A stretch of 32,000 nt of DNA from Paralysiella testudinis (GCF_016894345.1 NZ_CP069798.1:2795248-2827247), one strand, 5' to 3'; shown: positions 5,495 to 5,637, counted from the first letter of the stretch. Notes: generated by a model not told the origin, from the sequence alone. Translations and numbers: made by a program.

Positions 5495-5535
5495 GTAAAA
5501 CCCCCTCTTATATTCAAGCTGGCTTGTGGCCGCCT

Positions 5536-5545
5536 AGGATACTGT
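5536..5545. repeat. Core repeat variant AGGATACTGT (copy M), 42 nt upstream of the recombinase ATG
   Basis: 5511-5549 is homologous to 11487-11529: 14/17 identities, then a 2-nt versus 6-nt indel, then CCGCCTA(G/A)GATACTGTTCA. Confidence 0.6.
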
Positions 5546-5637
5546 TCAGGTTTTAAAACGGGTGAGAACCCCGCCTGCCAATCTTTTGTTCAGGCTCGAA
5601 GCCTAGCTGCTGGGAACGGCTTGGGCGGGGGGACTGC

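Follow-up and report, generated by a model that had tools for sequence, protein, structure and literature searches.

The closest described relative of the system treated here is IS621, a 1.3-kb insertion sequence (IS) whose IS110-family recombinase, with DEDD and Ser domains, is guided by an element-encoded bridge RNA (Durrant et al. 2024, PMC11208160; Hiraizumi et al. 2024, PMC11208158). This RNA is encoded immediately 5′ of the gene and carries a target-binding loop followed by a donor-binding loop; the 3′ side of a loop is complementary to the core and the right half-site (PMC11208160), the donor is ACAGTATCTTGTAT (PMC13396178), and a junction promoter across the core of the circle is known for IS110 elements (PMC11208160). 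The seekRNA of IS1111 elements follows the same guide principle with a recombinase of the same family. Among viruses, the Nf1/MDA phage of Neisseria is described with the gene order Rep, TspB, Zot and a terminal IS110-family transposase (Kawai et al. 2005, as cited in PMC7058167). As presented in the latter source, integration of Nf prophages is proposed to be mediated by their own IS110-type transposase and to occur in the abundant repeat dRS3, with a conserved CT. Here, we analysed a stretch of 32,000 nt from Paralysiella testudinis (GCF_016894345.1 NZ_CP069798.1:2795248-2827247), referred to as the window, whose positions are used throughout. It contains an Nf-like filamentous prophage with the same gene order, in which a 143-nt leader precedes the gene of an IS110-family recombinase. 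We propose, with a probability of roughly 0.88, that this leader encodes an IS621-type bridge RNA, which the recombinase would use as the guide of an integrase.

On the comparisons described below, the virus appears to choose its integration site by means of an RNA guide. The assignment is based on the boundaries of the element, complementarities between leader and junctions, covariation between guides and sites, a conserved RNA structure, and homology to IS621 in both protein and RNA layout. The original prediction, made from the window alone, had suggested a bridge-RNA-like guide for the recombinase and hence RNA-guided integration of a filamentous phage; covariation, architecture and the lack of a rival guide in the window all support this suggestion. 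Labels beginning with L denote the relative loci and contigs that were compared with the window (WIN), and L018 is a copy of IS621 fetched for comparison.

Boundaries of the inserted unit and the target site

Six metagenome contigs (L086–L091), which were found by a look-up of YihY and all encode an identical YihY, carry the empty site, with the wrbA-like gene and yihY side by side. The site reads ...TAATTTTAACAAA-AG-GCTGCCTGAAAACC... (also given as ...TAATTTTAACAAA-AG-GCTGCCTGAAAACCTGCGGCTTCAGGCAGC... and ...AACAAA-AG-GCTGCCTGAA...). Another contig, L013, is circular (6685 bp, with a terminal overlap of 30 nt) and holds phage genes, leader and recombinase in one circle. Its joined ends (attP) read ...TTGACCtttggataACAGTAT-CT-TATATTTTGCCCC...(55 nt)...ACAGTATCTTAGGCG..., that is, ...ACAGTAT-CT-TATATTTTGCCCC.... 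Because of the empty-site contigs and this circle, we assign the insert to positions 4190–11573, one whole unit of 7.4 kb, with a two-nucleotide core. The core is CT in the orientation of the recombinase (AG on the plus strand), at 4188–4189 and 11572–11573; it flanks the insert on either side and has a single copy in the empty site, and the insertion is scarless. The attP of the window, reconstructed from the joined ends, is ..ACAGTAT-CT-TATAT.. (written ..ACAGTATCTTATATA.. and GCAATACAGTATCTTATATATTCG), and the attB sequence is ..CAGGCAGCCTTTTGTT.. (also as TTTCAGGCAGCCTTTTGTTAAAA).

These boundaries replace those of the original prediction, which had taken the 10-mer AAGATACTGT (4187–4196 and 11517–11526) as the attachment core and 11510–11529 as the right junction. 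The empty-site contigs reduce the core to CT, and 11510–11529 lies inside the phage, where it forms an internal paralog of the donor-binding loop. This pair of boundaries was rejected, since the 55-nt "flank" that it implies is conserved in phages of other genera, lies within the circular attP and is absent from the empty site. The likeness of 5530–5549 to 11510–11529 stands (18 of 20 bases), but 5530–5549 is the donor-binding loop itself and not a near-copy of a right junction. The leader motif UUCCCA, said to match the flank on the yihY side, was discarded as a left guide because that flank (TTTCCCAAATTGA) is phage DNA and the match does not concern the target.

Many inoviruses integrate via host XerCD, and the recombinase and leader might be a separate IS110 insertion sequence inside a prophage that integrated in this or another way. 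ACAGTATC-type sequences occur three times in the window (4189–4196, 5538–5545 and 11518–11525) and could mark old IS ends, and some related Thermus inoviruses lack the gene (PMC11437467). Against this, the empty site shows 7.4 kb inserted whole at CT, evidence that also led us to reject 5530–5549 as the old end of a nested IS, and both ends of the insert are exactly the sequences read by loop 2 of the leader (see below). The L013 circle carries phage genes, bridge RNA and recombinase together, and over 20 relatives from several genera are arranged in the same way; no lone IS-sized copy was seen. We consider a nested IS very improbable.

A host DNA uptake sequence (DUS), the 12-mer AGGCTGCCTGAA (11572–11583, core plus flank), begins with the target AG. 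The 11-mer GGCTGCCTGAA, the core of AG-simDUS, a Neisseriaceae DUS dialect named in PMC10715097, is present in 27 copies in the window, against 0.03 expected. At the empty site, the DUS forms the 3′ arm of a terminator-like hairpin and is followed by a T-rich tail. Because only the occupied copy among the 27 carries the tail TTTGT, the guide would pick a small subset of a very abundant repeat. The window element does not integrate into dRS3 (ATTCCC..GGGAAT), the target reported for Nf1 in the source cited above; its own site, like those of its relatives, is the AG end of a DUS within a terminator hairpin. DUS copies in the window often stand as inverted pairs in the form of terminator-like hairpins, and the prophage is free of them. 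One phage (identical recombinase) was found in two contexts, L007 (6886) and L009 (6948), which are identical for 12 nt past the core (CT-TTTGTGTGCC) and differ thereafter, pointing to a repeat longer than the guide as its target.

Structure and conservation of the leader RNA

The minimum free energy (MFE) fold reproduces the leader stem CCCCGCC/GGCGGGG, the internal loop and the hairpin AGGCU-UCG-AGCCU of the original prediction, and places an inner stem, GCCG/UGGC, with an internal loop inside this outer stem. The complete leader comprises two modules (loops 1 and 2, Table 1), each with a stem, an internal loop and a hairpin. This structure is supported by covariation across relatives and not by energy. 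RNAalifold predicts 16 pairs in 12 homologous leaders, 11 of them with compensatory changes, and a covariance model built from this alignment (R1) was run on all loci. R1 scores 137 bits on the window leader (5492–5641) and found all close relatives (110–148 bits); more distant clades were found with E values of 1e-10 to 4e-3, and their full-length matches are on the recombinase strand directly upstream of the gene. In the window, as in all relatives with a match, the structured element directly precedes the start codon. In the R1 alignment of 49 distinct sequences, 92.1% of the cells are paired, compared with 71.4% after shuffling and 50% or less with slid partners, and 15 of the 16 pairs exhibit compensatory changes on both sides. 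The hairpin of loop 2 (helix 4) is paired in 100% of these sequences, with compensatory changes in 4/4 pairs. The outer stem of loop 1 lies outside R1, and it formed in 15/15 sequences folded singly (IS621 included) from strands that are different but complementary.

The original prediction had considered that a clear guide RNA might be located elsewhere. Over the window, R1 gives no better match than the leader, and the sole other match is a paralog at the left end (see below). Rfam scans of the window and of 4100–5800 returned nothing relevant; Rfam 15 also misses the IS621 bridge RNA, so these scans are uninformative. The region 3′ of the recombinase gene (4197–4522) was considered as a seekRNA-like guide and rejected: it has weak, chance-level Rfam matches that define no family, no match to the covariance model, and no match found to target or donor.

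Directly 5′ of the loop 1 outer stem, a heptamer is conserved as GCAGUAC or GUAGUAC (GCAGUCC in the window, 5631–5637). In IS621, GCAGUCC starts the loop 1 stem itself. The heptamer may represent the 5′ end of the RNA, a processing site or a protein contact.

The target-binding loop covaries with the insertion site

Pairing was read in the orientation of the recombinase by the rules of Durrant et al. (PMC11208160). The right target guide, on the 3′ side of loop 1, exactly matches the core and the right target at the wrbA-side junction. The 10-mer AACAAAAGAT (leader form AACAAAAGAU) has exactly two copies in the window, at 4182–4191 (plus strand) and 5581–5590 (minus strand), where 0.08 are expected. 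The exact match of 10 nt reported in the original prediction is thus confirmed, and its chance estimate of about 1 in 100 was of the right order. Its description as the flank plus the first half of the core requires correction, as the chromosomal flank contributes 6 of its nucleotides, the core 2 and the phage end 2. The AU that follows the guide has the same position and the same letters as the handshake guide A81/U82 of IS621 (PMC11208158; L018).

The covariation between loops and integration sites that the original prediction had proposed to look for was observed with one exception, L037 (discussed below). Among 11 distinct close elements, the right guide agrees with the flank at 53/55 positions, whereas non-cognate pairs agree on average at 3.2/5; none of 200000 permutations reached this value. 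In 19 elements of more distant clades, whose recombinases are 35–44% identical, the agreement is 90/95 positions, again reached by none of 100000 permutations (12 distinct pairs). In the close set, the guides AUUUCAG (L006), CAAACAG (L014), AGAAAAG (L019–L021) and AAACAAG (L022) stand opposite the flanks CT-GAAAT, CT-GTTTG, CT-TTTCT and CT-TGTTT, respectively. In the distant set, two Suttonella elements have the guides ACUAUAG (L004) and AAUAUAG (L003) with the flanks CT-ATAGT and CT-ATATT, so that a one-base difference in the guide is accompanied by the matching one-base difference in the flank. The 3′ side of loop 1 is thus complementary to the core and the right target, and covaries with them. 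The 10-nt match might have arisen by chance in an A/T-rich stretch, as the targets are T-rich terminator tails in which unrelated guides already reach the average given above. The low expectation for the 10-mer and the advantage of the cognate pairs over 200000/200000 and 100000/100000 permutations speak against this; the permutation tests reject chance, and we regard it as practically negligible.

The left target guide candidate, on the 5′ side of loop 1, follows the dialect of the uptake sequence at the left junction, though imperfectly. Across 7 elements, the observed match between left guide and dialect is attained by only 4 of 5040 permutations. Guides that follow the dialect include AGGUAGC, AGGUGGC, AAGCUGCU and AACGGCCU. 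The individual guides and their left targets with the core are AGGUAGCU and TTCAGGTAGC-CT in L008, AGGUGGCU and TTCAGGTGGC-CT in L014, AAGCUGCU and TTCAGGCTG-CT in L012, AAGCAGCU and TTCAGGCAG-CT in L076, and AACGGCCU and TTCAGACGGC-CT in L001 (Neisseria sp.). The register is canonical in L012, L026, L076 and L001; the window, L008 and L014 show a 1-nt shift.

The donor-binding loop matches the joined phage ends

Loop 2 contains ACAGUAUC, which equals the phage right end ACAGTATC and is also the donor of IS621 itself. The right donor guide pairs with the left end perfectly in WIN, L007, L013, L014, L026 and L076, and with one G·T wobble in L012. Together, the two guides make loop 2 complementary to both donor halves including the core. 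The donor motif differs between clades (ACAGTATCT, ACACTATCT and ACGGTATCT), and the leader, the right end and the left-end copy all follow the same change.

Alternatively, the site may be recognised by protein-DNA contacts, with the leader acting as a 5′ untranslated regulatory structure that, for example, hides the ribosome-binding site, and with the likeness to the junctions reflecting duplicated DNA sites. Several features are compatible with this explanation: the basal stem of loop 2 and the Shine-Dalgarno sequence overlap, the phage left end holds the loop 2 sequence a second time as DNA, and no promoter was found adjoining the leader. However, the loop residues covary with the chromosomal flank, a sequence outside the phage, which is not what a model of duplicated sites predicts, and the stems covary as those of an RNA would. 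Moreover, the closest characterised relatives, IS621 and ISCro4, need RNA (PMC11208160; PDB matches). We judge this explanation very improbable as a replacement for the bridge RNA, although regulation of translation may well coexist with guiding.

The recombinase

The recombinase is 36% identical to the IS621 transposase over its full length. All five catalytic residues are kept: Asp12, Glu59, Asp101, Asp104 and Ser239 align with Asp11, Glu60, Asp102, Asp105 and Ser241 of IS621. Its best matches in the PDB are ISCro4 (9t56, 6e-56) and IS621 (8wt6, 3e-53). Together with its two Pfam domains (Table 1), these features place the protein among the bridge recombinases of the IS110 group. A protein of identical sequence from Paralysiella testudinis is listed by NCBI as "IS110 family RNA-guided transposase". 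Relatives were gathered by protein search, contig look-ups and two collection scans. A contig scan with the single protein returned distant relatives only (38–44% identity); the close relatives came from the protein search and the contig look-ups.

Observations that weigh against a bridge RNA

A number of observations reduce our confidence in the assignment. The fold of the leader as a single sequence is not unusually stable (z = −0.9), and the 49-sequence alignment was fitted to R1, so its pair counts lean towards the structure. The promoter scan found no sigma-70-like promoter directly upstream of the leader; because of this, the leader transcript may come by read-through. The left guide of the window fits GGCAGC-CT only with a 1-nt offset or a bulge in the DNA (6/8 positions, compared with 2/8 in the canonical register). 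In the close clade, the donor-side guides are invariant, and their support there consists of complementarity and homology, not covariation. In the handshake of loop 2, the first base (A of AG) might form a pair with the T of the donor itself, which would be unfavourable by the IS621 rules; the equivalent change in IS621, G166A, lowers activity (PMC11208158).

The one clear exception to the covariation is L037, which resides at a site that fits the guide of L028 and not its own. L037 (7034) and L028 (9113) share the chromosomal site CT-CTTGTCTTTTATCTGCC, and their right guides are AAAAAAG and ACAAGAG, respectively, of which only the latter fits. Possible causes of this mismatch are an exchange of leaders between phages, an off-target event or a chimeric assembly.

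Junction promoter and left-end module

A promoter scan of the L013 circle identified TTGACC-17-TATATT across the core, with 10/12 matches and 0.2 sites expected, and the same boxes occur in the reconstructed attP of the window, as TTGACG-16-TATATA. Circularisation therefore rebuilds a promoter across the core. Downstream of it lies a module (Table 1) with a match to R1 at 11467–11636 (23.9 bits, E = 5e-5). RNAalifold gives 25 pairs for this module, 7 with compensatory changes; the terminator-like hairpin is also present in L012. The module is conserved, with counterparts at L008 959–1090, L012 32–165, L013 3846–3980, L014 28–175, L026 2465–2610, L076 1152–1290 and L001 ~3520–3640, and its donor-like motif covaries from clade to clade with the true one. 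The module may mark where the bridge RNA lay in an ancestor, may encode an RNA specific to the circle with the donor loop only, or may be a second DNA site.

A more far-reaching combination, which we put forward tentatively and hold to be rather doubtful, is that an IS621-like element became the integration module of filamentous phages of the Neisseriaceae, its target loop being retargeted genus by genus to the DUS of the host, and that a second small RNA with only the donor loop exists as well. This RNA would be made only from the circle, from the junction promoter (11566–11571) to the terminator-like hairpin (11439–11467), and might either work as a split bridge RNA or switch the phage between integration and excision.

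Putative mechanism and comparison with IS621

By analogy with IS621, the RNA would be made and processed, bound by the recombinase, and would direct the reaction catalysed by it. After infection, the circular replicative form would join the right and left ends, creating attP (..ACAGTAT-CT-TATAT..) and the promoter across the core, behind which all phage genes, the leader and the recombinase are arranged in one direction. The leader RNA would fold into its two loops and load the recombinase. Loop 2 would then bind attP, and loop 1 a DUS terminator with a tail that fits the right target guide; the 5′ side of loop 1, (C)AGCAGCU, is predicted to pair imperfectly with the bottom strand of GGCAGC-CT, the end of the DUS in the terminator hairpin. 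After exchange of the top strand, the AU behind the right target guide would pair with the donor AT (handshake), and exchange at the CT core would insert the whole 7.4-kb phage without a scar. In the integrated phage, the leader may be transcribed by read-through from phage genes, or its transcription may be specific to the circle and start at the junction promoter.

The junctions of the IS621 copy L018 are ..ATCAGGC-CT-TGTAT.. and ..ACAGTAT-CT-ACGCC.., and its RNA reads ..AUCGGGCCU-hairpin-UUGCGUAG-AU.. and ..ACAGUAUCA-hairpin-UAUUUGCAAG-GU... It shares with the phage the left donor half-site ACAGTAT-CT, the CT core, the left donor guide ACAGUAUCA and the handshake AU, and its loop 1 likewise ends in ..AG-AU. 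The two systems also agree in the domains of the recombinase, in the placement of the RNA and the order of its loops, and in the junction promoter spanning the core of the circle. With filters off, R1 has its best match on the IS621 record at the bridge RNA (L018 133–292), with the donor loop in register, although this match is weak (10.6 bits, E = 0.0098). Both systems use an abundant repeat as the target, the host repeat REP in IS621 and the DUS in the phage. In contrast to IS621, the full bridge RNA stands ~6 kb from the junction promoter at the left end, with phage genes in between; directly after the promoter, where IS621 keeps its bridge RNA, the phage has only a hairpin and the donor-loop paralog. 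Furthermore, no 5′ stem-loop of the IS621 kind was identified in the phage RNA, and the left target guide of the window pairs imperfectly. The IS1111 RNA is located 3′ of its gene, in the right end, whereas the phage guide is 5′ of the gene. By analogy, then, this is mechanistically an IS621 system in which the moving unit is a virus.

That a phage might use a bridge RNA is an idea that the 2024 work readily suggests. Guide RNAs go unmentioned in a 2024 paper on Thermus inoviruses that carry such genes (PMC11437467), and our literature search, whose coverage was incomplete and which is not proof of absence, found nothing that links bridge RNA with inoviruses, Nf phages, dRS3 or DNA uptake sequences. 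If the assignment is true, it would explain the site choice of Nf-type filamentous phages, relatives of the meningococcal disease-associated phage, which since 2005 has been ascribed simply to "their own transposase". It would also represent a natural bridge recombinase that carries ~6 kb of cargo within a virus, and a link between the competence-related uptake sequence and phage integration. Along the DUS dialects of Paralysiella, Eikenella-like, Kingella-like and Neisseria hosts, the target loops would form a natural series of reprogrammed guides, useful for deriving guide rules, including a possible tolerance for a 1-nt bulge. Orthologues with the IS621 donor half-site would be directly testable as engineering tools.

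Gene content and other features of the locus

The prophage has the gene set of Nf-type phages (Inoviridae of Neisseriaceae), with all genes on the minus strand in the order Rep, coat-like open reading frames (ORFs), TspB-like, DUF2523-like, Zot, 114-aa ORF, bridge RNA and recombinase. The same gene order is repeated in the relatives.

Table 1. Positions of the prophage, its candidate bridge RNA and the neighbouring genes in the window.
Feature	Position	Strand	Remarks
wrbA-like FMN reductase	3546–4163	−	flanking gene
Recombinase-side junction	4182–4196	−	plus strand: AACAAA (chromosome, right target), AG core 4188–4189, ATACTGT (phage right end, left donor); from the empty site
Nf-like filamentous prophage	4190–11571	−	7382 bp between the two core copies; domain matches and gene order
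−35 box TTGACG in phage right end	4204–4209	−	16–17 nt from TATATA (11566–11571) after circularisation; read from reconstructed attP
IS110-family (IS621-like) bridge recombinase	4523–5494	−	323 aa; Pfam PF01548 and PF02371
Leader between 114-aa ORF and recombinase	5495–5637	−	143 nt
Bridge RNA candidate	5495–5641	−	~145 nt; target-binding loop, then donor-binding loop, ends at recombinase start codon; covariance model R1
Loop 2 basal stem, 3′ strand GGGUUUUA	5496–5503	−	pairs with 5548–5555; MFE fold, helix 3; overlaps recombinase ribosome-binding site
Right donor guide AUAUAAG	5507–5513	−	exact reverse complement of CT+TATAT, phage left end
Loop 2 hairpin UAGGCGG..CCAGCUUG	5515–5536	−	helix 4
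Left donor guide GAACAGUAUC	5538–5547	−	5′ side of loop 2; identical to top strand of phage right end ACAGTATC
Candidate handshake guide AU	5581–5582	−	complementary to AT before the core in phage right end (ACAGTAT-CT), not to target GC; read from sequence
Right target guide AACAAAAG	5583–5590	−	exact reverse complement of CT+TTTGTT at wrbA-side junction; exact match, covariation across 30 relatives
Loop 1 distal hairpin AGGCU-UCG-AGCCU	5592–5604	−	MFE fold, RNAalifold; compensatory changes in 4/5 pairs
Left target guide candidate CCAGCAGCU	5605–5613	−	5′ side of loop 1; follows DUS dialect at left junction
Loop 1 outer stem, 5′ strand CCCCGCC	5624–5630	−	pairs with GGCGGGG 5569–5575; MFE fold
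114-aa ORF	5638–5982	−	
Zot-like (assembly) ATPase	5972–7108	−	
94-aa ORF	7112–7396	−	at the position of the DUF2523 protein in relatives
TspB-like (adsorption) protein	7398–9062	−	
Rep (G2P-like)	10000–10995	−	prophage gene
Small coat-like ORFs		−	prophage genes
Left-end module	11433–11562	−	downstream of junction promoter; hairpin GCCCC-N6-GGGGC; donor-loop paralog with intact CT (UUGAACAGUAUCU..UAAGC); terminator-like hairpin before first phage ORF
Far junction	11564–11583	−	plus strand: AATATATA (phage left end, right donor), AG core 11572–11573, GCTGCCTGAA (chromosome); from the empty site and L013 attP
yihY/BrkB	11737–12996	+	flanking gene

Rfam detects four tRNA genes (RF00005) in the window, at 1167–1256, 17476–17548, 28708–28779 and 28801–28874; the phage junctions have none. 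Two 16-nt direct repeats, TACAGGTGCATTATCA and TACAGGTGCAGTATCA, spaced 18 nt apart (5644–5677), are located where the 114-aa ORF ends (3′), just before the bridge RNA. The region 4197–4522 (minus strand) is non-coding, conserved and strongly structured. It contains a hairpin, GUCAAGGGG..UAAAGGCGCAGCCUUUA..CCCCUUGAC (~4474–4518), with 95.7% identity to a stretch of the human-derived Inovirus D_HF35_23, and a second long hairpin (~4395–4445), which seems, on inspection by eye, to show compensatory changes in L006, L010, L012 and L013. This region may be a phage origin or a packaging signal.

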